Of a stretch of DNA of 64,000 bases, positions 15,954 through 61,489 are shown piece after piece. The position numbers and the translations under genes are program-made. The stretch is taken from positions 108,316 through 172,315 of IMG/VR virus record IMGVR_UViG_3300047462_000154. One strand, given 5' to 3'. Every line of letters begins with the position of its first letter. The first letter of the stretch is position 1. A model generated the notes under the pieces. The model did no database searches and was not told where the DNA came from. It saw nothing but the letters and a program-made list of their open reading frames with translations. The DNA is from a virus.

Positions 15954-18900
15954 ATGACAGATAAACGTAGACAAATACAACAACTTCCAGCAATCAATCA
16001 AACTCAGGCATTAAAAGATTTTTTTGGTGTAACTGTTGATGAAGTTTTTCAACCAGGAACACCTGTTGCAACAAATGGATATATTGGACAAATTCCTCCA
16101 TTATATGATAATCAATGGCAACCAAACACATATTATAATGTTAACGTTTATATTGTTTACAACAATATTCTTTATCAATGTGTAACTTCACATACCAGTG
16201 TTTCAACATTTAATCCTGTATTATGGGCAGCGGTTGATTTTTATATTCAGGAACAAAATTCTGAAAGACAAAATTATCAACTTGAGCCTGGAATGACGAG
16301 CACTAATTCTTCAAATGTAATTACAAATGCTTTGACATATCCAGATTTGGTTGATTATATAGAAAATAATAACGGTATTATAACAAATCAACAAAGATTA
16401 TTTGAAACAGATTATTATTCTTGGGCACCACCAATTGATATTGATAAATTTATCAATTTTCAACAATATTATTGGTTTGGTGATTTAAACGGAAGTAATG
16501 ATTTGCCTACTTTGGTTTTGTCTTCTCCTATTTTTTCTTATACTGGTGATGGCACAACAACATCATTTGCTTTACCTAATAGCATTTCTGGAATTTCTTC
16601 AAATCAAGAAACTCCTGCAATTTATGTCAATGGTGTTTCTGAACAATACACAATAAGTGGAAATAATATTATTTTAAGTGCTGCTCCTTCTGTTGGAGCT
16701 AAAATTATTACAACACGTTTCGATAATTTATATGATGCCATCAATAATCAAGAAACTTTTCCAATTTCTGAATTTATTAGTAACATAACTGCATATAATG
16801 CAGATGGCTTCACTACGTCATTTGCTGATGTATATTCTACATCTTCGAATGAAAATCAATTTTTGGTTTTTTATACACCAAATGGAAGTATAACATCTAC
16901 CTTATTAAATTCAAACAATTACAATTTAGAAAATGGTTTTGTTAATATTATTTCTTTACCAAATTCATTAACTGTTCCAAATTATGGTGATACAATATCG
17001 ATTGTTTTATTAAATGGTTTATTAAGTTTAACTGACATAAGTTCTATTCCTTCAGGTATATCTTATACTGATTTGCAATATCTTTCTTCTGGTATGCGAA
17101 TTCAATTACTAGATACGCAAACATATTTTTTAACTTGGGATGAATCTCCTTGGGATTCTGGTTTATGGGATGGTGGTCAACCATTATATTTTGTTGATGG
17201 TGTTGGTTCTTCAATACGTTTAACTTCTAGTAATTCTTTAATTACTGGTTTAAATGCACAATATGTTACAATTGACCGTTCATCGTTAGATAATAATCCG
17301 TGGTCATTAAGAAATTCTTGGGTTCATGTTGATACTTTTGCTTGGTCTGGTTTAAATTTTTCATCAAGACAAGCATCGCGCCAAATCATAGAATTTGTGA
17401 AAGATATTGTATTATATAATTATGGATATCAAAGAATTTTACCTATATCAGCAACATTGACAAACAATGCTATGGTAAATGGTGTTGCTATAACATATTC
17501 CCAAATTGCTTTTGAAACGATTGGTTCTGTTTATGTTGATAATAATGTTTTATTAACCAATGGAATGAGATTACTTGTTTTGGGAACAACACAAACATTA
17601 TTTGAAGTTTCTGAACAAGACAATTTATATTTACTTACTCCTATTTCTGTTACTGTTGGTGATATTGCAAAAATTGGAACAAGTACATCTGAATATTGGT
17701 ATAATGGCACAGTTTGGAATTTGGCTCAAATTTGGAGTGAAAGCGCAAATCCTAGATTTGTTCTTTATGATATAGAAACAACACCAACTGCATTTGATGA
17801 TAGCACAGTATATCCTAATAGTAATTTTGGTGCATCTAATGGTAATGAAATTTTTAGTTATCAAGTTGGCACAACATATGATTCAATTTTAGCAAAATAT
17901 ATTAATTATGATTCCAATGGTTATATTATTTTTGAAAACGATACAGTTATTAATATATATACTTATCTATTAAATGGGGTTGTAACTGATATAACCAGTC
18001 TTGCTTGTTATGGGGTTTCTACAAATTATTCAATAACTAATTCATTATCTACACAAGCATTGTGGTATAAATCTACAAATCCTTCAACTACACAACAAAC
18101 AACAAATTCTAATGGATTTTATAATATACCTTTGAATTTAGAAGCAAATCCTTTATGGAATGATGTGACTACACTTTCAAAAAGTGAATATTTTTCTCAT
18201 TTTACTTCAATAATTTCAAATCAAATTGGTATTGAAGGTGCCCCATATTATAACAATAATTGGAGAGACACTACCAAAAATTTAGGTTCTGGAACAGAAA
18301 TATTACAACATCAAGCGCCATTATTGAAAGCGATGTTATTTGCTTCAGATAATAGGTTTGATATACCAACAGCGATAAAATATGCGGACCAAGAATACAC
18401 AAGGTTCAAGAACAAATTTGCAAAAAAATTAAATGATTTATTAATTAAAGGTGTATTATCTGAAGATACTTCTCCACAAACTTGTGTTACAACTGCTTTA
18501 AATTCATTAAAAATTGACAAGAATAATACATTTCCGTTTTGGTTAAGCCAAATGGCTGGAGATTTTTATTTTATACCACCAACACCAGCCTATTTGGGTA
18601 TTTTGACGCCAACATTACCATCAACTTCATTGGTTATGGATTATACTTTTGGTGAACCGATTGAAATGATACAAGGTCATGATGGTTCGTTATCTCCTGC
18701 TTTTCAGGATTGGAGAGATAATGTTTTTATTGCTTTAGAAACACAAATTTATAATAGCATTCCAGAACAATTTATTACTCAATTGAGACCAATTTTTGAT
18801 ATAGAAAATTATATATCAAATAGATTTTATTCAGCAAATAATGGATATAATTTAGGAGAATTAAATTCAATTTTAGCACCTATTTTTGAAAGATGGGCAC

Positions 18901-21900
18901 AAATTGGAAAATTTGATTTTAGAACTAACGGAACATATGACCCAACAAATCCATTTAGTTGGAATTATCGCGGATGTGTAGATAGATATGGTAATTTAAT
19001 GCCTGGGTCTTGGCGAGCAATTTATAATTTTTATTTTGATACAGATAAACCAGATACATGTCCTTGGGAAATGCTTGGTTTCACTTCAATGCCTTCTTGG
19101 TGGATTGCTAATTATGGAACAAATTATAGCCGTGGCAATACAGCCCTTTGGAGCGATTTAGAGACGGGTACAATACGTTCTGGTGTTCGTGCAGGGGTTG
19201 ATGCAAGATATGCCCGTCCAGGGCTTTCTAACGTCATTCCTGTTGATGCTTCTGGTAATTTGCTAGACCCGATATCAGCAAGAATTATTTTACAAGGTCC
19301 AGATTCGATAACTGCTGCCAGAAATTGGTTGTTTGGTGATGAAGGACCAGTTGAGCATTTATGGAAAACGAGTAGTTCATATAGATTTGCTTTATCACAA
19401 GCGGCATTTTTGATGAAGCCTGCTAGATTTTCAGAAATATTTTGGGACACCATAAATTTTCAATTTGTTAATGACCAATGGGTTGATGATCGTACAAGAC
19501 AGCGCCCAATCATTACTTCTGATACTTTAATTCATGGTGAATTAAAAAATGATGAAACAACTTACGAAATTGTTTTTGGTATTCAGCAATGGTTGGTTGA
19601 TAATCTTGTGTTTACTGGTCAAAAGGCGTCTGTTTTAGGTGATACAATACGTGGAATTGATGTAAATTTAATTTATAGAGTTGGTGGTTTTGTTTCATCT
19701 AATGGAATTACTGCACAAACGGATAATTTTGGAATAATTCCAAGCGAAAATGTTTCTGTAACATTATATCAAGCGCCTGCTTATATTATTCAAACCTATA
19801 GCGGTGTAATTGTTGAATGGACTGGTGCTGGATATAGAATCATTGGGTATGATGCAAAAAATCCATTTTTTACTATTGTACCACCAGACAAAAATAATGT
19901 GAGCGGGTCAATTTCTTTATCAACAACTCCACAAGTTACAATTTATACTTGGGCACCTGGAACATATTATCGTTTAAATGTTTATGTAAATTATAAAAAT
20001 TCGGTTTATCAATGTATAACCGCACATACAAGTGGTTCAACATTTAATGAAAGTTATTGGAATCCTACTCCTGGTGTTACGAATACTATTGCTCCTTCAA
20101 TAACAACATATACAAATGGATTAAATTATACCGTAAATATTTCTTATGGAACAGTATTAAGCACTATACAAGATGTTGGTGATTTTTTACTTTCTTATGA
20201 AAGATATTTGGTAAATCAAGGATGGGTGTTTGACCAACTAGATTCTTCCACAGCAACAACATTTAATTTTTCACATGCAGCAAAAGATTTTTTAACTTGG
20301 TCTCAAATTACATGGCAACCAGGAAATTTTATTGCTTTGTCGCCTGGAGCAACTGGATTAAAATTTGTAACTACAGAAGGCACTATTTTAAATGTAGAAG
20401 ATTCTGTAACTGGATTTTATGGTTTATTAGATAGAGGCGGTTCGCCAATTGATAGTAGAACGGTTGTTGCAAATCGTTTGGAAGGTGAAATATTATTAAG
20501 TTCTAACACATCTGATATTTTTGCATGTACAATTGAAGTTGCCAATATAGAACATGTTATTGTGTTTTCAAATACAACAATTTTCAATGATATAATTTAT
20601 TTGCCTTTATATAATCAAAGACAATCAAGAATATTATTGACTGGTTTTAAATCAAGTGATTGGGCTGGAAGATTAGATGCTCCTGGATATATGGTTTTGA
20701 ATAATCAAATGTTTTCAAATTTTGAAAAAACACCAGAAGATATTCGATTGATGTTTGATATTGAAGAAATTTCAAGACCAGATTTAAAAAAATATGCGCA
20801 ATCTAATATTGCTTATCAAGTAAGAACATATTTAGAAGATTTGTTGATTAATTCAACAGAACAATTTGAATTTTATCAAGGAATGATTGCACAAAAAGGT
20901 GCACCAGGAGTTTTTGAAAAACTTTTAAGAAGTCAAAGAGTTACTTCAAATTCAGATATTGTTTTTCTTGAAGAATGGGCAATTAGATATCCAACAACAT
21001 TTGGTTCTCCAGTAAATCCCTTGGCATCATTTCAATTATCACAATCGTCTTTACATAGAGACCCGCAATTTATTAGTTTTTATATTCCTAATATTAATTC
21101 TCCTGATTGGATTAATTTAATTGGTCCAACAGAAAAAGTTTTTACTTGGAAAGAAAACACACAATATTATACAGGAGTTTATGTTTATTATCAAAACAAT
21201 GTTTATGTTTGTGTTACCAAACATTTAAGTACAAATGTATTTCAGACAATTTATTGGAATGAATTAAACAATTGGATAGATGAGCCAAATAATAATTTCT
21301 TTCCAAATGCAGTAAATCCTGTTTCAAAAGTTTCAACTGCTGGATTTGTTAGATTATCAGAAGTTCAATATACTTCAGTAGGTCTTTCAAATATTTCTTC
21401 ATATTATATTTCTCAAAATCAAAATGGCATTACTTCATTTAATACTGGAGAAAGAGTTTGGGTTTATACCAATGCACAAAATACTTGGGATGTTTTGCGT
21501 GTTTTTGATGTAGGTTTAACTCCCTGCACAATCAATAATATTACTACACCAATACAAGATTCAACGGTATCAACATCAAGATTATATATTACTGGAACAT
21601 TGAATTTGACCCAAGCTGATATTGGGGCAATGATTTTAATTCAAGGACCAACTTACAGCACGCCAGATTTGAATGGTGTTAATTACATCAAATCATTTTC
21701 TATAGAAAATGGAACAATTGATTTAAATACTGTTGTTACTACTGGTTTTAATTTTACAACAAACTCTACAATACAGCCAGCAATAAAAATATTCCGTTCT
21801 GTTCGTTTTCAAACAGATGCAATTTTAAATTCTTCAACAAATGTATGGTCTAATACTGATTTGGTTTGGGTTGATAATTATCAATCAACTGGCGAACCTG

Positions 21901-22913
21901 TTGTTTTAAATTATGTAAATAATGTTTGGAATATTATCAGAAATAAACCAACAAAAATTGACCCAACTTCAATTAAAACATCTTCGATTTACAATAATGC
22001 AACAAGCATTTCAACAAATCAACAATTGTTGGTTACAACTCCATTGGTTGATGATTTAACGATAATAGACCCGTTAGCTGGATTTTTTCCAGGTGCGGCA
22101 ACAAAAGAAATAAATTATATAACTGATTTTGACCCTGCAATTTATTCATACAATAATGGTTGGAATAATATTCAAGTTGGACAAGTTTGGTGGAACACAT
22201 CAACTGTTAAATATCTTGACCCCTATACTGATGCTCTTGGTATCACAGATGAAAGAGATTTTCAAGAATTACAATATAGAATTTCAAATTGGGCAACAAT
22301 AGCCCCAAACACTTCTGTTGATGTTTATGAATGGACACAAAGCACTTTATCACCAACAGCTTATGTTGCAGCGGCAACAAATGATACAACTGGTACATAT
22401 GGAACTATATATAATTCATTATTATATACTACTAACCAATTATATGATTCATCATTAGAAACAATGGTTACTTATTATTATTATTGGGTAAAAAATTTAA
22501 CCGTTGTTCCAAGTTTGCCATTTAGAAAAACAAGTGTTTCTGATGTAGCTTCTTTGTTAACAACACCAGTAAATCAAGATTTACAATGGATGGCAGCAAT
22601 TTCAGAAAATTCAATTTTAGTAAGTGGAATAAACACGTATTTAAATAATACGTCAAGTGTTTTGAAAATAGAATTAGATACTGCATCAAAAGATAAAGTT
22701 CATTCACAATGGACATTATTGCGTCCAAACGACCAACAATCTTTACCACCAGAATGGTTATGGAGAAAAATTAGAGATAGTTTGGCTGGTTTTGATGATA
22801 ATGGAAATACTGTTCCAAATATAAATAATTCATCAACATCACAAAACAATTCAATTGAGTATTTTACTGTTGGTATTTCGACAGTTGGAAGTCCATTACA
22901 GCAAAAAATATAA
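15954..22913 (+). CDS. Very large baseplate wedge/structural protein with three CBM5/12-like repeats
   Basis: 2319 aa; PPIDIDKFINFQQYYW motif; three W.P.TYY...YV.Y....Y.C.T.H.S modules. Confidence 0.7.
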   Translation: MTDKRRQIQQLPAINQTQALKDFFGVTVDEVFQPGTPVATNGYIGQIPPLYDNQWQPNTYYNVNVYIVYNNILYQCVTSHTSVSTFNPVLWAAVDFYIQEQNSERQNYQLEPGMTSTNSSNVITNALTYPDLVDYIENNNGIITNQQRLFETDYYSWAPPIDIDKFINFQQYYWFGDLNGSNDLPTLVLSSPIFSYTGDGTTTSFALPNSISGISSNQETPAIYVNGVSEQYTISGNNIILSAAPSVGAKIITTRFDNLYDAINNQETFPISEFISNITAYNADGFTTSFADVYSTSSNENQFLVFYTPNGSITSTLLNSNNYNLENGFVNIISLPNSLTVPNYGDTISIVLLNGLLSLTDISSIPSGISYTDLQYLSSGMRIQLLDTQTYFLTWDESPWDSGLWDGGQPLYFVDGVGSSIRLTSSNSLITGLNAQYVTIDRSSLDNNPWSLRNSWVHVDTFAWSGLNFSSRQASRQIIEFVKDIVLYNYGYQRILPISATLTNNAMVNGVAITYSQIAFETIGSVYVDNNVLLTNGMRLLVLGTTQTLFEVSEQDNLYLLTPISVTVGDIAKIGTSTSEYWYNGTVWNLAQIWSESANPRFVLYDIETTPTAFDDSTVYPNSNFGASNGNEIFSYQVGTTYDSILAKYINYDSNGYIIFENDTVINIYTYLLNGVVTDITSLACYGVSTNYSITNSLSTQALWYKSTNPSTTQQTTNSNGFYNIPLNLEANPLWNDVTTLSKSEYFSHFTSIISNQIGIEGAPYYNNNWRDTTKNLGSGTEILQHQAPLLKAMLFASDNRFDIPTAIKYADQEYTRFKNKFAKKLNDLLIKGVLSEDTSPQTCVTTALNSLKIDKNNTFPFWLSQMAGDFYFIPPTPAYLGILTPTLPSTSLVMDYTFGEPIEMIQGHDGSLSPAFQDWRDNVFIALETQIYNSIPEQFITQLRPIFDIENYISNRFYSANNGYNLGELNSILAPIFERWAQIGKFDFRTNGTYDPTNPFSWNYRGCVDRYGNLMPGSWRAIYNFYFDTDKPDTCPWEMLGFTSMPSWWIANYGTNYSRGNTALWSDLETGTIRSGVRAGVDARYARPGLSNVIPVDASGNLLDPISARIILQGPDSITAARNWLFGDEGPVEHLWKTSSSYRFALSQAAFLMKPARFSEIFWDTINFQFVNDQWVDDRTRQRPIITSDTLIHGELKNDETTYEIVFGIQQWLVDNLVFTGQKASVLGDTIRGIDVNLIYRVGGFVSSNGITAQTDNFGIIPSENVSVTLYQAPAYIIQTYSGVIVEWTGAGYRIIGYDAKNPFFTIVPPDKNNVSGSISLSTTPQVTIYTWAPGTYYRLNVYVNYKNSVYQCITAHTSGSTFNESYWNPTPGVTNTIAPSITTYTNGLNYTVNISYGTVLSTIQDVGDFLLSYERYLVNQGWVFDQLDSSTATTFNFSHAAKDFLTWSQITWQPGNFIALSPGATGLKFVTTEGTILNVEDSVTGFYGLLDRGGSPIDSRTVVANRLEGEILLSSNTSDIFACTIEVANIEHVIVFSNTTIFNDIIYLPLYNQRQSRILLTGFKSSDWAGRLDAPGYMVLNNQMFSNFEKTPEDIRLMFDIEEISRPDLKKYAQSNIAYQVRTYLEDLLINSTEQFEFYQGMIAQKGAPGVFEKLLRSQRVTSNSDIVFLEEWAIRYPTTFGSPVNPLASFQLSQSSLHRDPQFISFYIPNINSPDWINLIGPTEKVFTWKENTQYYTGVYVYYQNNVYVCVTKHLSTNVFQTIYWNELNNWIDEPNNNFFPNAVNPVSKVSTAGFVRLSEVQYTSVGLSNISSYYISQNQNGITSFNTGERVWVYTNAQNTWDVLRVFDVGLTPCTINNITTPIQDSTVSTSRLYITGTLNLTQADIGAMILIQGPTYSTPDLNGVNYIKSFSIENGTIDLNTVVTTGFNFTTNSTIQPAIKIFRSVRFQTDAILNSSTNVWSNTDLVWVDNYQSTGEPVVLNYVNNVWNIIRNKPTKIDPTSIKTSSIYNNATSISTNQQLLVTTPLVDDLTIIDPLAGFFPGAATKEINYITDFDPAIYSYNNGWNNIQVGQVWWNTSTVKYLDPYTDALGITDERDFQELQYRISNWATIAPNTSVDVYEWTQSTLSPTAYVAAATNDTTGTYGTIYNSLLYTTNQLYDSSLETMVTYYYYWVKNLTVVPSLPFRKTSVSDVASLLTTPVNQDLQWMAAISENSILVSGINTYLNNTSSVLKIELDTASKDKVHSQWTLLRPNDQQSLPPEWLWRKIRDSLAGFDDNGNTVPNINNSSTSQNNSIEYFTVGISTVGSPLQQKI

Positions 22914-34401: not shown

Positions 34402-34773
34402 ATGTCACGTTTAATTTGGAATGAAACGACTACGCCTCCACAAAGTTTTGAATCTAATATGTTCATGCTCAATCTTGGGCGCGGACCAAATAAAACAGTT
34501 CCTCTACGGATAGAAACAGGAGGAACAAAAACGCTAATTGGTAAAAGTGGCGATTTTTTAGTTTGTAAAATTTTTATAGAATATACAAAAGACGGAAAAG
34601 TTAATTGGATGGAATTAAGTATTAGTAACAAATTATTCAGAGGCAAAAAAACACAAATCCGAGATTTAAAGGATGAAAACGTAGAGATTTCAAAGCTTAA
34701 AAAAGACGCACAGAAAAAATGGGATAAATGGTTGATAACTGCACAATTAAAAAATAAAAATTCTTTGCTCTGA
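34402..34773 (+). CDS. Hypothetical protein
   Basis: 123-aa ORF in operon orientation. Confidence 0.55.
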   Translation: MSRLIWNETTTPPQSFESNMFMLNLGRGPNKTVPLRIETGGTKTLIGKSGDFLVCKIFIEYTKDGKVNWMELSISNKLFRGKKTQIRDLKDENVEISKLKKDAQKKWDKWLITAQLKNKNSLL

Positions 34774-34810
34774 TATCTTGACAAATAATTTTTATATGAT
34801 ATAAGTATAT

Positions 34811-34961
34811 TATTAAGAATTCTATATAACACTGGTTATAATAGAAACTTATAAGACTATAAAAGAGCCGCCTATAAATTATACAATTATAGGGATTATC
34901 GAGGTTTTTATAGCAACATCTTCTAACTTTTGTTGCCGTAAACCCGAAAGGAATCCCTATG
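34811..34961 (+). promoter_or_regulatory. Structured 5' leader with mutually exclusive pairings over RBS/start (putative translational switch)
   Basis: ATAGGGATT (34889-97) is the exact complement of AATCCCTAT (34952-60, includes AT of ATG) but overlaps the CCTATAA/TTATAGG and CTATAAAA/TTTTATAG stems. Confidence 0.65.
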
Positions 34962-35579
34962 TCCAGAACGATTCGAAAACTTCCTATCACTCGTTGGAAA
35001 AACTATGGCAAATGGTATGCATCTTGTTTGCCTTATACAAAACCAGATTATTCAAATATTAGAATTTTTCATTATCATCCTAACCAGCGTTGGGAGGGAG
35101 ACAGTATTCTTCAAATTATTTTCAAAAACAATATTGATGAAACTTTTTATGAAATTATTGAACATGAAAATGGCTATCGTCAAGTTATTATTAAAAAACA
35201 TTTTTCAATAAAAGATACTTATGAAGATGAAGATAAAATTTTTGAAGAAAGAATTATGGATTATGCACGTAAAAACGGCACTTGTAAAAGACAGCGCAAA
35301 AATGGAGTGCGTCTAACGAAAAAACTTGACCGCCGCCAGCGTAGAGCACAAGCGAAAATGGATTTGATAAAAGAATTTAATACTATTGAACAAGATGAAC
35401 CAGATGAGGCTCAAAGACTATTATTGTCAGAAAAACGCGAAAGAAAATCTCTTTTGCGTTCAAGACGATATAATGCAAGAAAAAATTATGAAAAATCGCT
35501 TAAAGAAAGCACTGCACTTGGATTTGATGAATTATATGGTGAAAAATATTATGAAAATCATCCTTGGTATTTTTATTGA
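34959..35579 (+). CDS. Basic hypothetical protein (MSRTIRK...DRRQRRAQAK)
   Basis: AAAGGA RBS, 206 aa, Arg/Lys-rich helices. Confidence 0.7.
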   Translation: MSRTIRKLPITRWKNYGKWYASCLPYTKPDYSNIRIFHYHPNQRWEGDSILQIIFKNNIDETFYEIIEHENGYRQVIIKKHFSIKDTYEDEDKIFEERIMDYARKNGTCKRQRKNGVRLTKKLDRRQRRAQAKMDLIKEFNTIEQDEPDEAQRLLLSEKRERKSLLRSRRYNARKNYEKSLKESTALGFDELYGEKYYENHPWYFY

Positions 35580-35903: not shown

Positions 35904-36014
35904 TATAATATTTAGTTCTAATTTTTAAGTATTCGCAAATAAAAAACATGTTTACAACCAAATTGATTTCTGTTTATGTTTTGCCAACATCAATATGAAT
36001 TGGACAAATCAAAC

Positions 36015-37226
36015 ATGCGTTTTCTTGTAAGCGAAACATCCTATTTCCCAACAAGCGATTTTTCTCATAAAATTTCAGAAATTTTACCTCCAAACAATTT
36101 TGTAATCAAAGTTGATAGAGAAAGAGGCATGTTTTTTGAAATGATTGATTCATTTAAATTTGATGGAAAAATCTACGGCAATCCAATAAATCGTGCCAAA
36201 AAGATTTTAAACACATATGAAAAACGCAGTAATAGCACAGGCGTTTTATTGTCTGGTAGAAAAGGTAGTGGTAAAACACTTCTTGCCAAAATGCTTTCTA
36301 CTCTTGGTGCAGAAATCGGATATCCAACTATTGTGATAAATGCTGCATATTATGGCGATGCATTTAATATGCTAATTCAATCAATCACACAACCATGTAT
36401 AATTCTATTTGATGAATTTGAAAAAGTTTATAATTCAGATGTACAACAAGCTATTCTTACATTGCTCGATGGCGTGTTCCCAACCAAAAAACTTTTCATT
36501 TTTACGTGTAATGATTACACCAGAATTGACCAACATCTTCAAAATCGTCCTGGTAGGATTTTCTACACAATTCAATATAAAGGATTAGAAGCCGCATTTG
36601 TTAAAGAATATTGCGAAGATAATCTAAAAAACAAAAAACATATAAAAGAAGTTATCAAATTATTTCACCTTTTTGATGATTTTAATTTCGATATCCTTAA
36701 AGCACTTGTAGAAGAAATGAACCGTTATGACGAAACAGTTCAAGAAGCAATGATTATGCTTAATGCAAAAACATATTCTTTAGATTATTCACAGTATACT
36801 ATCGAAGTATATGATGGGGAAACAAAACTCCATGCAAATTCTTATTCTCCAAATAGAACCGATAAAAATCCAACAATGTATGAAAATCTTTCTATTGTGA
36901 TAAACAATCCAAAATCTACAAATCCAAATACAAATCCAAAATCGACTCATGTGCAAAATCTGCCAATATCACATGATATTAATGATAGTGTTAGTGCTAC
37001 AGCAACAGATATGGTGAATACTCTGAGAGAAATGCTTGCTGGCGATTCAGATGAATCTGAATCAAAATCCAAGAAAAAAATCAGACCAATTACTTTGAGT
37101 ATTTCTCAAACAACTAAACGGTCTATCGAAGTAGATGGAACAATTGTTTACAAAATAAACAGATATATTATCAAATGTGTAAAAGTGCAATACCAAAGAG
37201 ACTATACCGCTTATATGGATGATTAA
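36015..37226 (+). CDS. AAA+ ATPase
   Basis: Walker A GRKGSGKT, Walker B ILFDEFEK, NRPGR arginine finger; probable start 36015. Confidence 0.9.
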   Translation: MRFLVSETSYFPTSDFSHKISEILPPNNFVIKVDRERGMFFEMIDSFKFDGKIYGNPINRAKKILNTYEKRSNSTGVLLSGRKGSGKTLLAKMLSTLGAEIGYPTIVINAAYYGDAFNMLIQSITQPCIILFDEFEKVYNSDVQQAILTLLDGVFPTKKLFIFTCNDYTRIDQHLQNRPGRIFYTIQYKGLEAAFVKEYCEDNLKNKKHIKEVIKLFHLFDDFNFDILKALVEEMNRYDETVQEAMIMLNAKTYSLDYSQYTIEVYDGETKLHANSYSPNRTDKNPTMYENLSIVINNPKSTNPNTNPKSTHVQNLPISHDINDSVSATATDMVNTLREMLAGDSDESESKSKKKIRPITLSISQTTKRSIEVDGTIVYKINRYIIKCVKVQYQRDYTAYMDD

Positions 37227-37555
37227 TGCCCTGGATATTGTTTCTTGATGATGTAAGAATGCCAAATCTAACGTATCCTAATCAAGATACGTTAGATTGG
37301 ATTATCTGTAGAAGTTTTGCAGATGCAGTATCAAAAACAAAATCTCTCGGTTGTCCAAACAAAATTCTTTTTGACCATGATTTAGGTGAAAATGAAACAG
37401 GGTTCGATTTTGCCAAATGGTTGATAAATGAAATTTTAAATGGTATGCAAATACCAAATGATTTTTCATTCGAAATCCATTCAATGAACCCAATAGGTTC
37501 TGAAAATATTAAACAATTAATGAATGGTTTTCTTCAACATATCAAGGAAATGTAA
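37226..37555 (+). CDS. Cyclic-phosphate-processing receiver-like domain protein
   Basis: LFLDDVRMP, FDHDLG, TGFDFAKWL, HSMNPIG motifs. Confidence 0.8.
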   Translation: MPWILFLDDVRMPNLTYPNQDTLDWIICRSFADAVSKTKSLGCPNKILFDHDLGENETGFDFAKWLINEILNGMQIPNDFSFEIHSMNPIGSENIKQLMNGFLQHIKEM

Positions 37556-38590: not shown

Positions 38591-41500
38591 TTATGTTCCA
38601 GGCGTGCCAGGAGCGGGTGGTGGTGGAGCCTCAGTAGATGACGTGCTTCCACCAGGACCAGCTTCAGGAGGCTGTTCACCGCCTACAACATTACCATCAG
38701 TATTATCTTCAGGTTCATTACCTAAAGCGTCTAATCCAAAATCATTCGATGTGCCTCTAACGCCAACATCTGATAAATCTTGATTCGTATTGGAATCAGC
38801 AGGATTTTCACCTGTTGAATTTTCTACCAATTCTGGATTTTCTTCTTGCCATAATGTTTCATTTTCAATCAATTCATTTTCTGATAAATTCAAGAAACGT
38901 TTTAATTTAAATCTTTCAGATAAACGCTTATTGTCTTGAACCTGAGTATATACTTGCATTTGTTGGGTATCGATTTCAATTTGTCTATACTTCGTAAAAT
39001 TCTGTGGAGGATTAAAACGAAGTTCAAAAATACTTGAATCAATCTCAATACCATTTTTTTCCAAATAGTATTTAAATTCTTTATCAAATACTGGAGATAA
39101 TAAATTCTGCAATCTCATGCAATATTTGTTGAAACGAAATTCTTGAATTAATGCAGCACCTAATTTACCATCATTAAAAGAAATAGCACCAGCAGCATCA
39201 TCTCCAATAGACAAATATGATGGTGGAATACGCAAACCACGTGCAAGCTTCTTACTAAACCAAGATAAATCTGTTATTTCCCCAGTGGAATTATAAGTAA
39301 ATACACCAGCACATAATGCAAAAGTATGAAAATCATGAAAAATTTCTAAACCATCAATAGTTATAGTTCCAGTATCTATTCTTTCATCAAGATATTCAAT
39401 TGAAACAACTTGGTGATTAAAGTTACTGGAATTTTTCTTAAAATGTTTCCAATTTGTAAAACCATATTCATTTATAATTGTAATAATTTGATTAGAATGA
39501 ATTTTATCATTGTTTGTCAAATGATGTGTTTTTGGATTTTCCTTCTTTAATAAATCAATAAATTCTTTATTTTTATTTAAAGAAGAAATCATGGAATTCA
39601 TTGTATTTGCGCCATTTTTTAATTCTTTAATTAAAATTCTCATCATATCAATATTAAAATTGAAAGTTTTTGAATTTTGTAAATCTTTGTAACGAACTTC
39701 ACCCCAAGACAAATTTCGTTCTTCTAACATTTGACGAAAATGTCTTTGATATAAAACAAAATTATTAATATCTAAATTTTTGGCAGTAGTATTTTTATTT
39801 TGTTCAATAATTAAATCCATTATTTCTTTATTTTTGTTTGCTTTTTCAATCAATTGTTCCATTGTTAAAGTTTTTTTATCACACAACGAAATAATTTTTG
39901 TGAAAATTTCATCATCAAACATAAGTTTTTGATTTTTTGCTTGGTTAACAAAAGCTTCAGTTTTTATTCTTTCCTTAAATAAATCAGAATAACGTTCTCT
40001 ACGCTCTGGTGTATACGATTTTTTAACACCTTCTGTTCTACGCGCAACTAACTCATCATGATATTCTTTATCAGACATAAAACGTTCAATATGTTTATCA
40101 ATTCTACCATTTAAGAAACTTTCGCGGCGAGATTCCCAAAACTCTAATTTTTCTTGTTCCGATTTTTTATTCCAAGCCTCTTTGCTTCTTAAACTTGTTT
40201 TTTCTGCAATATCAATTCTTTCTTCATCTGATAAATTTTTCCAATAATTCATCACCCCTTCTCTGATATTATCTTTAAAATTTTCATTAATGGTTTTAGA
40301 ATGATATTCATAATGGTCTTTATAATTCATCCAATACAAATTAGATGGATTGTTATCAAAACGATTAAAGTTTTTATGATGAACACATGTTCTTGGTTCA
40401 TCTCTATACTTTTCATCGTTTATCATAATATTTTCCATATCACTATTTTTAAAATATTTTGCAACTAAACGATGAACATATAACCATTTTTTTGATTGGT
40501 TATCAAAAACCATCATATAATCTTTTGTTCTTCCTTTTTTTATTTCTTGTTTTTTTGTTTCAAAAGGAAATAAAGAATCGCCAATTTGAATATTTCTTGC
40601 TTCTGTTTTGCCTTTTCCTTGAACTGGAAAATTATGGTCAGGTGTCACTGTGATAGTTTCACCATTATCCAAAGTAATTTTCAAAACTTCTGCATTTTTT
40701 CTTGTTATGCCAGCCCAATTAATCATACCAGGAACTATTTTTCCAGTAATTGGGTCACATGAATACGCCCATAATTGTTTACCGTTTTCATGTTCTTTAA
40801 TAATTTCAGAAAGTGATAAATTTCTTCCATCTAATAATGGTATCATTGTATCTAAAGATAAACACTCTCCACCAGGAAGAACGTCAACTTTTGAACCTCT
40901 TCCCTCATTACCGCAATTATGAACATATACACCACTTGATAATGCAAAAACGTGGCTATTTGATTCACTTTCAATTGTTAAATCACCAGTGTCTTCAATG
41001 TATGGAAGTAATTCTACAGAAACCACTTTATGATTTTTCTTATAAGATTTTTTAAACTCATCCCAAGAATTATAACCAGCAATTTCAACAGTTTTATTTA
41101 AAGTTTTGTCTCCAATATATGAACCTATTTTTGTATTATGTTTATATGTTTTTGTATTTTCATTGGCTTTTTTAAATTCAAATTGAAAAATTTCATCATT
41201 TTTTAAAACGGGAATTAATTTAGAAATACTATCATAACCATTATCATATAATTCAACCAAGCGTTTGAACATATTTTCTGAATATTGTAATGTTCTTTCT
41301 TTATTTGACTGTTCTCTAATTTTATTAATGTGATTTACAGATTTTTTTCTTTTTTCATCATCAAAATTTTGCCATGCTCTTATATTACTTTGTCTGTTTC
41401 TTTCTGCTAATTTTACTTTATCTTCATCAGACATATTATCGTATAAATTTCTCATTCCGTTAAGAAGATTTTGTCTTTTAACAGGGTCTTTCCAACTCAC

Positions 41501-43093
41501 ACCCAAAGAATAACTTCCGAGTTTTTTATGCAATTCAATATGTTCTTGTGCATCCATAATTTCTAAATTAGATGGTGTATTATCCATAGAATTTAAATTC
41601 TTATGATGACATACAATATTTTTATCAATTGGTTTTTTTGATATTTCATGAACAAATTTTTTCTTATTTGTTTTATTGCATAAATATCTTACATATTGTT
41701 TCTTTTTTTGATTTTTTCCAGAATTAAATTGAAACAAATATAAAGGCATTAATGATTGCCCAGTAACCAATTTTTCTGCTTCTAATTCAGAACCATCTCT
41801 CAATATAAATTTATGGTCTGGAGTGCAATCAATATATTCACCATTATCTAATGTAACTCTTAAAATTTCTGCATTTTTTCTTGTAATTCCAGCCCAAGAA
41901 ATTTTTCCTGGTTCCATTTCATGAGTTTTTGTGTTTAAAGAATATATCCAATTTTCTTTGCCATTTTTATATTCCTCAATTAAATCATTTAAAGATAATT
42001 TTCTACCATCTAATAAATCAATTTTGGTATTTAGAGAAAGACAAGCGAAAAAATAATCCTCCACCATACTCATTGCGTTGTAACTGGCATCAAGGCGTGA
42101 ATTTCCACCACCCGACCTATTTGGTATGTACCTGGAATGAATTTCATTTTTTACAGTTTCTAAATGTGCTTTAGCTTTTACGGGTGGCATTGCTCCAACG
42201 TCAATATAAAAAACTCTTCTTTCTGGCGCACGTTGCACGCGATAAATTAAAATAGCATCTTCCAATAATTCTTTTTGTTTAAATGTTTTGAATATTGGTT
42301 CTAATACGCTTTGACCAAACGGAAAATTAATGTCCATACCAACGGACAAAGATAAATGCACCATATGTTTTGCATCAACAACAAACATTTGGTTTTGCAT
42401 TGTTTGTGCTGCTTGTCTTCCTCTTGGGTCTGCATTGGAACCAGCCAATGAAAATGCAACTGGACCGCTTGAAGCAGGAACAACGGCAGGGCGTCCACCA
42501 TAAGCGTTTGCTGCACCAAATGGTGTACGATATTGTTGAGGGTCAGCAGTGATTGTTGCGAATTTTGCTTGTCGATTTAAATCTAATCCTCTGATGACAT
42601 ATTCTTCTGGTTTTTTACTACCAGAATCATCAACTTTTACCATTTCCACCATGAATGAATCGACCCATAACCATTCTAATGTTTCTGGGTCTCTTAGGAA
42701 TAATTGGTCACCATTTTTGATGGTATTTCTGAACATTTGCCATAATTTTTGGCGAAAGGTATTTAATTTAATCCATTTTTCAATATATTCATTGATAAGT
42801 TTTACTTCGGTTTCTGTTACTTTACCATTATATTTTATTTCAAATGGTTGGTCAGATTGTTCTTCTGATTGCGTGCAAAAATCAGCAATAGTATCCAAAG
42901 CAGCATTAATATCAGAATCTCTATCCATATCGTCATATTGATAATATCTTTGAATTCTATTTGGATGCCCTGCATATACTTCTGGTAAATAACTTGAATA
43001 TTTTGCAGATGTTCCCGCCATACCACCTTGAGACACAGGATTTGTTGTAGATGTGGGCAAATTGGCACTTCTAAAAAATTTTTTCCAACTCAT
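38591..43093 (-). CDS. gp20: Portal vertex protein (gp20-like) with two inteins; spliced product 599 aa
   Basis: MDRDSDINAALDTIADFCTQ, LLEDAILIYRVQRAPERRVFYIDVG, EDYFF..EGRGSKVDVLPGG, LARGLRIPPSYL. Confidence 0.95.
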   Translation of the reverse strand: MSWKKFFRSANLPTSTTNPVSQGGMAGTSAKYSSYLPEVYAGHPNRIQRYYQYDDMDRDSDINAALDTIADFCTQSEEQSDQPFEIKYNGKVTETEVKLINEYIEKWIKLNTFRQKLWQMFRNTIKNGDQLFLRDPETLEWLWVDSFMVEMVKVDDSGSKKPEEYVIRGLDLNRQAKFATITADPQQYRTPFGAANAYGGRPAVVPASSGPVAFSLAGSNADPRGRQAAQTMQNQMFVVDAKHMVHLSLSVGMDINFPFGQSVLEPIFKTFKQKELLEDAILIYRVQRAPERRVFYIDVGAMPPVKAKAHLETVKNEIHSRYIPNRSGGGNSRLDASYNAMSMVEDYFFACLSLNTKIDLLDGRKLSLNDLIEEYKNGKENWIYSLNTKTHEMEPGKISWAGITRKNAEILRVTLDNGEYIDCTPDHKFILRDGSELEAEKLVTGQSLMPLYLFQFNSGKNQKKKQYVRYLCNKTNKKKFVHEISKKPIDKNIVCHHKNLNSMDNTPSNLEIMDAQEHIELHKKLGSYSLGVSWKDPVKRQNLLNGMRNLYDNMSDEDKVKLAERNRQSNIRAWQNFDDEKRKKSVNHINKIREQSNKERTLQYSENMFKRLVELYDNGYDSISKLIPVLKNDEIFQFEFKKANENTKTYKHNTKIGSYIGDKTLNKTVEIAGYNSWDEFKKSYKKNHKVVSVELLPYIEDTGDLTIESESNSHVFALSSGVYVHNCGNEGRGSKVDVLPGGECLSLDTMIPLLDGRNLSLSEIIKEHENGKQLWAYSCDPITGKIVPGMINWAGITRKNAEVLKITLDNGETITVTPDHNFPVQGKGKTEARNIQIGDSLFPFETKKQEIKKGRTKDYMMVFDNQSKKWLYVHRLVAKYFKNSDMENIMINDEKYRDEPRTCVHHKNFNRFDNNPSNLYWMNYKDHYEYHSKTINENFKDNIREGVMNYWKNLSDEERIDIAEKTSLRSKEAWNKKSEQEKLEFWESRRESFLNGRIDKHIERFMSDKEYHDELVARRTEGVKKSYTPERRERYSDLFKERIKTEAFVNQAKNQKLMFDDEIFTKIISLCDKKTLTMEQLIEKANKNKEIMDLIIEQNKNTTAKNLDINNFVLYQRHFRQMLEERNLSWGEVRYKDLQNSKTFNFNIDMMRILIKELKNGANTMNSMISSLNKNKEFIDLLKKENPKTHHLTNNDKIHSNQIITIINEYGFTNWKHFKKNSSNFNHQVVSIEYLDERIDTGTITIDGLEIFHDFHTFALCAGVFTYNSTGEITDLSWFSKKLARGLRIPPSYLSIGDDAAGAISFNDGKLGAALIQEFRFNKYCMRLQNLLSPVFDKEFKYYLEKNGIEIDSSIFELRFNPPQNFTKYRQIEIDTQQMQVYTQVQDNKRLSERFKLKRFLNLSENELIENETLWQEENPELVENSTGENPADSNTNQDLSDVGVRGTSNDFGLDALGNEPEDNTDGNVVGGEQPPEAGPGGSTSSTEAPPPPAPGTPGT
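39290..40864 (-). mobile_element. Portal intein 2 (525 aa) with HNH endonuclease
   Basis: CLSLDTM...VTPDHNF...VHHKNFNRFDNNPSNL...GVFTYN followed by +1 Ser. Confidence 0.93.
40916..42043 (-). mobile_element. Portal intein 1 (376 aa) with HNH endonuclease
   Basis: CLSLNTK...CTPDHKF...CHHKNLNSMDNTPSNL...GVYVHN followed by +1 Cys. Confidence 0.93.
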
Positions 43094-58179: not shown

Positions 58180-58258
58180 TGGTGTCCCTGGTAGGACTCG
58201 AACCTACGACCGACGGATTAGAAATCCGTAACTCTAATTCCTACTGAGCTACAGGGAC
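58180..58258 (-). tRNA. tRNA-Arg(UCU)
   Basis: GTCCCTG acceptor, ACGGA-TTTCTAA-TCCGT anticodon arm, GTAGG-TTCGAGT-CCTAC T arm, encoded CCA. Confidence 0.95.
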
Positions 58259-61402: not shown

Positions 61403-61489
61403 TGGAGGGCTTAGTTGGATTCGAACCAACGCGGGATTACTCCGTGGGTTTAAAAGACCCTGCCAATCGACCACTCTGACCATAAGCCC
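61403..61489 (-). tRNA. Atypical tRNA-Lys(UUU) with long variable arm
   Basis: GGGCTTA/TAAGCCC acceptor, GGGT-CTTTTAA-ACCC anticodon arm, GGA-GTAA-TCC variable arm, GTTGG-TTCGAAT-CCAAC T arm, U73, CCA; 87 nt. Confidence 0.85.

Follow-up and report, generated by a model that had tools for sequence, protein, structure and literature searches.

What a long, structured, untranslated leader does in front of the gene for a basic phage protein is the question raised by this locus. The DNA analyzed here, a stretch of 64,000 nt that we refer to as the window, makes up the final 64 kb of an IMG/VR virus record of 172 kb, the completeness of which is estimated at 39%. The window is ≈30% G+C (28–30%), is found in moss metagenomes, and codes for a T4-type portal with inteins, tail-fibre proteins, and two tRNAs; judged by the T4-like portal gene, its source appears to be an uncultivated T4-like phage. 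None of the cultured phages is close, the sole similarity being ≈67% over 250 nt in the neighboring ATPase gene.

Layout of the leader and its two folds

A TTGACA promoter followed by a long untranslated leader had been described in an earlier note on this DNA, and both are borne out: the promoter lies at 34778–34805, and with a predicted 5′ end at ≈34812 and the gene starting at 34959, the leader is ≈147 nt long. The leader sequence contains no ATG between 34812 and 34959, as the same note had reported. The elements that we distinguish are as follows.

34778–34805, +: sigma-70-type promoter, from sequence; TTGACA at 34778–34783, a 16-nt spacer ending in TGA (extended −10), and TATAAG at 34800–34805
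34814–34851, +: P0, 5′-terminal hairpin, from folding; core 34820–34830 with 34835–34846, one bulged A
34857–34869, +: R1, 5′ strand of P1; CUAUAAAAG plus CC at 34868–34869
34871–34893, +: P2 hairpin; 34871–34877 with 34887–34893, the 3′ strand being reused in the closing stem
34888–34897, +: 5′ strand of the closing stem; P2 3′ strand plus the junction after P2, pairs with 34952–34961 in the MFE structure
34899–34913, +: X, the common switch strand; pairs upstream (P1, enclosing P2) or downstream (Pa, enclosing P3)
34913–34936, +: P3 hairpin; 34913–34918 with 34931–34936, 12-nt loop, in both folds
34938–34947, +: R3, 3′ strand of Pa, from duplex tests; ends directly before the SD
34948–34961, +: SD (AAGGA, 34948–34952) and 3′ strand of the closing stem (34952–34961), including the AUG at 34959–34961
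34959–35579, +: gene for the 206-residue basic protein, an ORF that begins MSRTIRK; central motif RKNGTCKRQRKNGVR

P0 begins 2 nt from the predicted 5′ end and has a folding energy of −8.2 kcal/mol (z = −2.9). The remainder of the leader can adopt two folds, and the 5′ hairpin as well as every ON and OFF helix proposed in the earlier note are present and correctly placed. The ON fold (fold A) comprises 34857–34865/34905–34913 and 34871–34877/34887–34893, with R1 finding a further partner in GG at 34903–34904. The OFF fold (fold B) comprises 34888–34897/34952–34961, which covers the AUG, 34899–34907/34940–34947, and 34913–34918/34931–34936. Since 34887–34897 and 34905–34907 are common to both, the ON and OFF folds are mutually exclusive.

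The RNAfold MFE structure of 34811–34975 consists of the OFF hairpin and the 5′ hairpin, at −33.2 kcal/mol (z = −2.70; 1 of 200 shuffled sequences scores as well). The long stem of the window (34888–34961) contains ≈28 pairs and is interrupted by bulges and loops. The OFF fold had been said to enclose the ribosome-binding site and to pair the start codon; the AUG is indeed paired, but the SD core GG (34950–34951) is itself unpaired, being located in the 4-nt internal loop that separates two helices.

No RNA run is listed as containing this stretch, and the contigs assembled from DNA of related moss samples contribute one loop variant only: position 34925 reads G rather than A (A34925G) in a contig of a related moss-metagenome run, and as this position sits in the P3 loop, no helix is touched. 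A separate observation concerns the motif TATAAATT at 34873–34880, within the 5′ strand of P2, which is one base off the T4-type late promoter TATAAATA. A transcript begun at this motif would be without R1 and could thus form the closed fold only; the motif is not conserved in the related leaders L002 or L024.

Conservation and covariation among related leaders

We examined the DNA of 13 further members of the basic-protein family and compared 12 leaders, i.e., that of the window and those of 11 relatives, whose proteins are ≈30–50% identical in amino acid sequence and which range from AT-rich to GC-rich. The 12 leaders have a common order of elements: promoter, 5′ hairpin, R1, P2, junction, X, P3, R3, a purine-rich SD, and the start codon. 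Two family loci, L025 and L029, are without a clear scheme. A promoter of the form TTGAC[AG]-N13-TGN-TAnnnn is found 153–211 nt upstream of the start in seven family loci including the window; six of these have the same 16-nt spacer, and L033 has a weaker −35 hexamer. The 5′ hairpin is found in seven members besides the window, built from unrelated sequences and placed 0–3 nt from the predicted 5′ end, with z scores of −2.4 to −5.1 in all seven leaders that have a predicted promoter and room for such a hairpin.

The P2 position is occupied in every relative by a 6- to 10-bp hairpin of unrelated sequence, and in P2 of L024, U-A is replaced by C-G. The P3 stem and the junction that precedes it are kept in sequence in eight leaders, and P3 is swapped for other hairpins in L026, L003, L032, and L037; the GC-rich L003 and L037 keep the scheme with other sequences. 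L037, examined after the scheme had been drawn, exhibits the same hand-over between folds in stepwise folding (see below), plus a stem that pairs GGAG and the spacer. The closest relative is L002, with a protein identity of 45% and a leader core that is ≈85–90% identical over ≈100 nt; the leader is far better conserved than the gene. A 5-nt indel between the window and L002 falls within this conserved core and thus rules out a coding reason for its conservation. We also considered an upstream leader peptide, a 24-codon ORF in L002, and rejected it: the window is without a start there, and its reading frame is interrupted by the 5-nt indel.

Some leaders (L030, L033, and L002) have three copies of the palindrome UCUAGA, in R1, in X, and in codons 2 and 3 (Ser-Arg) of MSR. 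With one copy in R1 and another in these codons, R1, once freed, is able to pair with the first part of the coding region; in three members, it can thus take up the AUG and codons 2 and 3 as an alternative to the closing stem. As a general feature, pairing of R1 with the first codons was discarded; it is strong in L030, L033, and L003 only, and not in the window.

MAFFT alone misaligns P2, P3, and Pa between subgroups, and we therefore used an alignment-free test and a model-guided alignment; RNAalifold on the plain MAFFT alignment nonetheless recovers P1, with compensatory changes in five of eight pairs. In the alignment-free test, the duplex energy of each strand with its own partner was compared with that obtained with partners from other leaders, over all 12 leaders. 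For R1–X, own partners give −10.2 versus −6.5 kcal/mol for swapped ones, and for X–R3, −9.9 versus −6.0 kcal/mol, with 0 of 20,000 permutations as good in either case, whereas the control R1–R3 reveals no difference (own −4.87 versus swapped −5.44 kcal/mol, p = 0.84). This outcome stands with three close relatives reduced to one and with the seven divergent leaders only. The closing stem likewise prefers its own start region (−9.1 versus −6.45 kcal/mol, p = 2e-4); it is strong in 7 of the 12 leaders and weak in the other 5.

A covariance model made from six other leaders, with the window left out and P1 and P3 annotated, matches the window at 34855–34961 with 31.2 bits (E ≈ 3e-4), the next matches being L002 and L024. 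The rest of the 172-kb record has no other match to this model; the element is single-copy there. In the model-guided alignment, fold A has 95.6% standard pairs and five pairs with compensatory changes; none of 500 shuffles does as well, slid controls reach 33–43%, and 95.7% of P3 cells are paired. Fold B (Pa and P3), to which this alignment was not fitted, has 81.5% standard pairs and five pairs with compensatory changes, with slid controls at 34–51%. The excess of G-U over A-C pairs (21 versus 5) assigns the structure to the RNA of the + strand. The covariation that the earlier note had proposed to look for in homologous leaders is thus found for both folds, and its central claim, two incompatible folds that use a common strand, one hiding and one freeing the start region, is upheld; both folds exist, are conserved, and co-vary.

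Between four and nine nucleotides of X are used by both P1 and Pa in all 12 leaders (five in the window), so that the full helices cannot coexist. This rules out a pseudoknot in which P1 and Pa are both complete; a partial pseudoknot is possible as an intermediate.

Energetics and a candidate one-way gate on translation

The energies and barriers given here come from nearest-neighbor models, and the findpath barriers are rough upper bounds calculated without pseudoknotted intermediates. The OFF fold of the window is favored over the ON fold by ≈9–11 kcal/mol. Fold B is the MFE structure in 11 of the 12 leaders, by 3.6–12.3 kcal/mol; L027 is the exception, with fold A favored at equilibrium. 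In stepwise folding of 11 of the 12, the MFE structure changes from A to B as the transcript end arrives at −10 to −18 relative to the AUG, R3 then being complete. Path estimates put the barrier from A to B at 6.4–11.7 kcal/mol in 10 of the 12 and that from B to A at 11–30 kcal/mol. With the usual prefactors, these rough model numbers would put closure in the range from milliseconds to tens of seconds, with reopening slow relative to the lifetime of the mRNA. The leader had been called bistable, a term that these models do not bear out, since one fold dominates thermodynamically; as modeled, the leader is not bistable at equilibrium. Dominance of one fold is among the outcomes that the earlier note had named as speaking against its reading; conservation and covariation, the absence of which it had named as well, are present in the homologues. 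Taken together, the greater stability of fold B, the low estimated barrier to closing, and the high one to reopening point to a one-way device that is open when nascent and later shut.

On balance, we favor the view that the leader of this early phage mRNA acts in cis as a conserved RNA switch, namely as a one-way gate on translation, and we infer that this gate acts on translation initiation and does so kinetically. Host RNA polymerase would begin at the strong sigma-70-type promoter, and the first 40 nt would form the terminal hairpin P0, which probably protects the 5′ end. X would then pair with the upstream R1 to give P1, which encloses P2, and P3 would form next; this nascent structure, fold A, would leave the A-rich stretch as well as the SD and AUG single-stranded. 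Once made, R3 would displace R1 from X through branch migration that begins at the unpaired junction 3′ of P2, and the fold B hairpin (Pa atop P3) would zip down until its base, which the 3′ strand of P2 supplies, becomes paired with the start region (34888–34897/34952–34961 in the window). Fold B would thereby place a long helix against the SD, with the start codon region also paired in most members, and, much more stable than fold A, would reopen slowly on the mRNA time scale. A transcript would thus be translated only briefly, unless a factor holds fold A or speeds closure.

P1 is specific to the ON fold, which must be of importance, given that P1 co-varies; the simplest view is that the ON fold is a co-transcriptional intermediate. 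Covariation in both folds is what a delayed-folding mechanism predicts and a plain inhibitory hairpin does not. Such a mechanism has a stable final fold over the start region, and here the long hairpin is the MFE structure in 11 of 12 leaders and the AUG of the window is paired. It also has an earlier, exclusive, metastable fold that is conserved, and P1 and P2 co-vary and make up the MFE structure until R3 is transcribed. The modeled barriers suggest that translation would be from nascent, nonequilibrated RNA only. The extent to which fold B blocks the ribosome is uncertain, because the SD lies in an internal loop or beside the hairpin in the window and several relatives, and because 5 of 12 leaders have a weak closing stem. 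As to what triggers the hand-over, a purely kinetic process of delayed folding is a reasonable, if tentative, candidate, and modulation by a protein, most plausibly the basic product itself, might be involved; an RNase III or other processing step seems improbable, and a small ligand equally so. The sequence of the P3 stem and junction, kept in eight leaders, is not required by a purely kinetic device and hints at a binding partner.

An autoregulatory operator would supply such a partner: the Arg/Lys-rich product would bind its own leader, either at the P3 stem and junction or at the long hairpin, and favor the closed fold in a negative feedback. We regard this as possible but doubtful. The element accompanies one and the same protein family over widely differing base compositions and occurs once in the genome, the protein combines an invariant, predicted-disordered N-terminus with a conserved basic helix, and it is P3 and the preceding junction, not P2, that are conserved in sequence. 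However, Pfam, PHROG, PDB, and fold searches assign the product to none of the known RNA-binding folds or families, distant members have unrelated hairpins in the place of P3, and a simple operator leaves the covariation of P1 unexplained. That covariation is equally unexplained if the long imperfect hairpin (34888–34961) is a processing site, i.e., a substrate that RNase III or a phage nuclease would cut so as to free the start region of its inhibitory strand and switch translation on. In favor of this reading, a stem that is long and double-stranded, though interrupted, is conserved beside the start of an early gene; against it, the helix is broken by bulges every 3–10 bp, and we consider processing an improbable explanation.

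Still less probable is a small-molecule riboswitch, with fold A (P1, the internal loop, and P2) as the aptamer and a ligand that, bound co-transcriptionally, keeps P1 closed and the ribosome site open. The competition of P1 with the expression-platform helix and the short co-transcriptional decision window do resemble kinetically driven riboswitches. Yet neither the junctions nor the P2 loop have a constant length or sequence, the exception being a loose UAUC-like stretch that also serves in fold B, the sequence of P2 is not conserved, the gene is not a metabolic one, and no riboswitch in Rfam matches, even at E up to 10. By inspection, the 12 leaders, few as they are, have no conserved unpaired nucleotides of the kind that would form a ligand pocket. 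The riboswitch-like character proposed in the earlier note looks unlikely in the small-molecule sense, given the lack of conservation in the ON-fold loops and the restriction of the element to one gene, of a single protein family. Finally, the complementarity might have no function in RNA and be incidental to AT-richness or to an element that acts at the level of DNA, e.g., an operator or recombination site. Short A/U helices arise easily at 28–30% G+C, and the z score of the window alone is modest (−2.7); against this stand the GC-rich L003 and L037, which preserve the scheme with other sequences, the own-versus-swapped tests, compensatory changes, and slid controls, all of which favor structure, and the predominance of G-U over A-C pairs. 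We give this last explanation very little credence.

Relation to known systems and the encoded protein family

The switching principle is known, and this particular RNA matches no family in Rfam 15. At the gathering threshold, only the two tRNAs pass in the whole window; 34760–35000 gives two chance-level matches only at E up to 10, and the leaders of 13 related loci give none. Exact 16-mer scans of IMG/VR with two conserved leader stretches return chance matches in coding DNA only. A gapped X–P3 pattern finds 20 loci in IMG/VR and GTDB genomes, none of which convincingly passes the covariance model and none of which has the protein. A search for related loci yields none in IMG/VR and two in JGI metagenomes, one of them with its N-terminus cut.

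The closest parallel in principle is the MS2 maturation-gene type, in which a metastable hairpin delays the inhibitory fold so that only nascent RNA is translated; well-supported mRNAs in which both exclusive folds are conserved are few, with four families compiled (PMC4615214). As in that type, the stable final fold of the phage leader hides the ribosome site through an upstream complementary strand, both folds are conserved and mutually exclusive, and an earlier metastable hairpin would, according to the folding models, briefly hold the inhibitory strand so that only nascent RNA is translated. The two are without sequence or structural homology. Unlike the replicating RNA genome of the MS2 type, the phage leader is part of a DNA-phage transcript made by host RNA polymerase; it is predicted to end as one long hairpin via a strand hand-over and not as a cloverleaf with a long-distance interaction.

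Other leaders are similar in part. The T4 gene 32, gene 43, regA, and ribosomal-protein leaders mediate negative feedback by their own products, and the 5′ pseudoknot of T4 gene 32 and the S15/rpsO pseudoknot are examples of such autoregulated mRNA leaders. Like the gene 32 and rpsO leaders, the one described here is a structured leader beside the SD of one gene, has P1 and Pa interleaved as in an H-type pseudoknot, and precedes a basic product that might bind nucleic acid. In contrast to those leaders, product binding is only a candidate role here, and the two helices share 4–9 nt and compete rather than coexist fully. With kinetically controlled translational riboswitches, the leader has in common a P1 that competes with a downstream helix for a common strand, a decision made during transcription, and a default closed state; it differs from them in having no conserved ligand pocket, a single non-metabolic gene, and no Rfam match. 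In the lambda N leader and T7 early mRNAs, RNase III cleavage is reported to remove an inhibitory strand and to turn translation on. The lambda N leader with its RNase III site resembles the present one in its early promoter, long structured leader, small arginine-rich early protein, and long hairpin that affects the start site. However, the phage here is of T4 type, no nut-like boxA or boxB is recognized in the leader, and nothing in the data speaks for antitermination.

The leader would add a double-stranded DNA phage example with 12 members, from AT-rich to GC-rich, and with a simple, readable hand-over. The defined element of ≈105 nt (plus the 5′ hairpin) is suited to reporter testing, could offer a compact one-way timer for synthetic biology, and could account for the way in which some giant phages restrict or time the production of an early protein in cis. 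We can conceive, speculatively, of a new class of self-timing leaders in giant phages, in which the hand-over shuts each early transcript within ≈1 s of its synthesis, so that translation of a host-takeover protein ends with early transcription without a trans-acting repressor or nuclease, and in which the arginine-rich protein may tune the rate of closing.

The leader could also draw attention to an uncharacterized, strongly conserved basic protein family, the tight control of which points to a dosage-sensitive function in early infection. Thirty-one representatives of this family at 50% identity emerge from word-based and exhaustive profile searches, with an invariant N-terminus (MSRT.R..P) and a conserved basic motif ([WY]C[RK]KN.TC[RK]RQRKNAVR). 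Contigs that bear the family reach 228–293 kb, and the family is one of large uncultivated phages. The AlphaFold model of the 206-residue protein (mean pLDDT 79.6) consists of a disordered N-terminus (pLDDT ≈41), a small α/β unit, and long basic helices. We found no confident Pfam or PHROG family for this protein, no sequence relatives in the PDB, and no Foldseek match to its model at E ≤ 0.001; VIA-align returns generic coiled-coil matches only (Z ≈ 5), and an ESM Atlas search returns only unnamed viral clusters. DUF7295 of Pfam matches 4 of 20 family members weakly (best E = 7e-5) and does not match the protein of the window. Cultured phages contain no homologue of the window's protein and none of P0016, and for P0011 only a weak partial match, in an Erwinia jumbo phage. 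In L030, the family gene and its leader lie between tRNA genes (126–199, 2223–2310, and 2363–2442), two of which begin 10–150 nt past the stop of the family gene.

Several other features of the window were noted. Downstream of the basic-protein gene, 35976–37555 (+) encodes an AAA ATPase (PHROG 2376, E = 5e-87) and then a 109-residue cREC_REC receiver-like protein (PF20274, E = 1e-18), the stop of the former gene overlapping the start of the latter. In a 1500-residue ORF at 38591–43093 (−), Portal_T4 (E = 2e-83) is accompanied by intein splicing domains as well as an HNH endonuclease; the portal gene is split by at least one intein. The region at 15954–22913 (+) is one 2319-residue ORF, preceded by an ORF of 1131 residues. 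The two tRNAs, both on the − strand, are tRNA-Arg(UCU) at 58180–58258 and tRNA-Lys(UUU) at 61403–61489, the latter with a low tRNA score of 38.9 bits.
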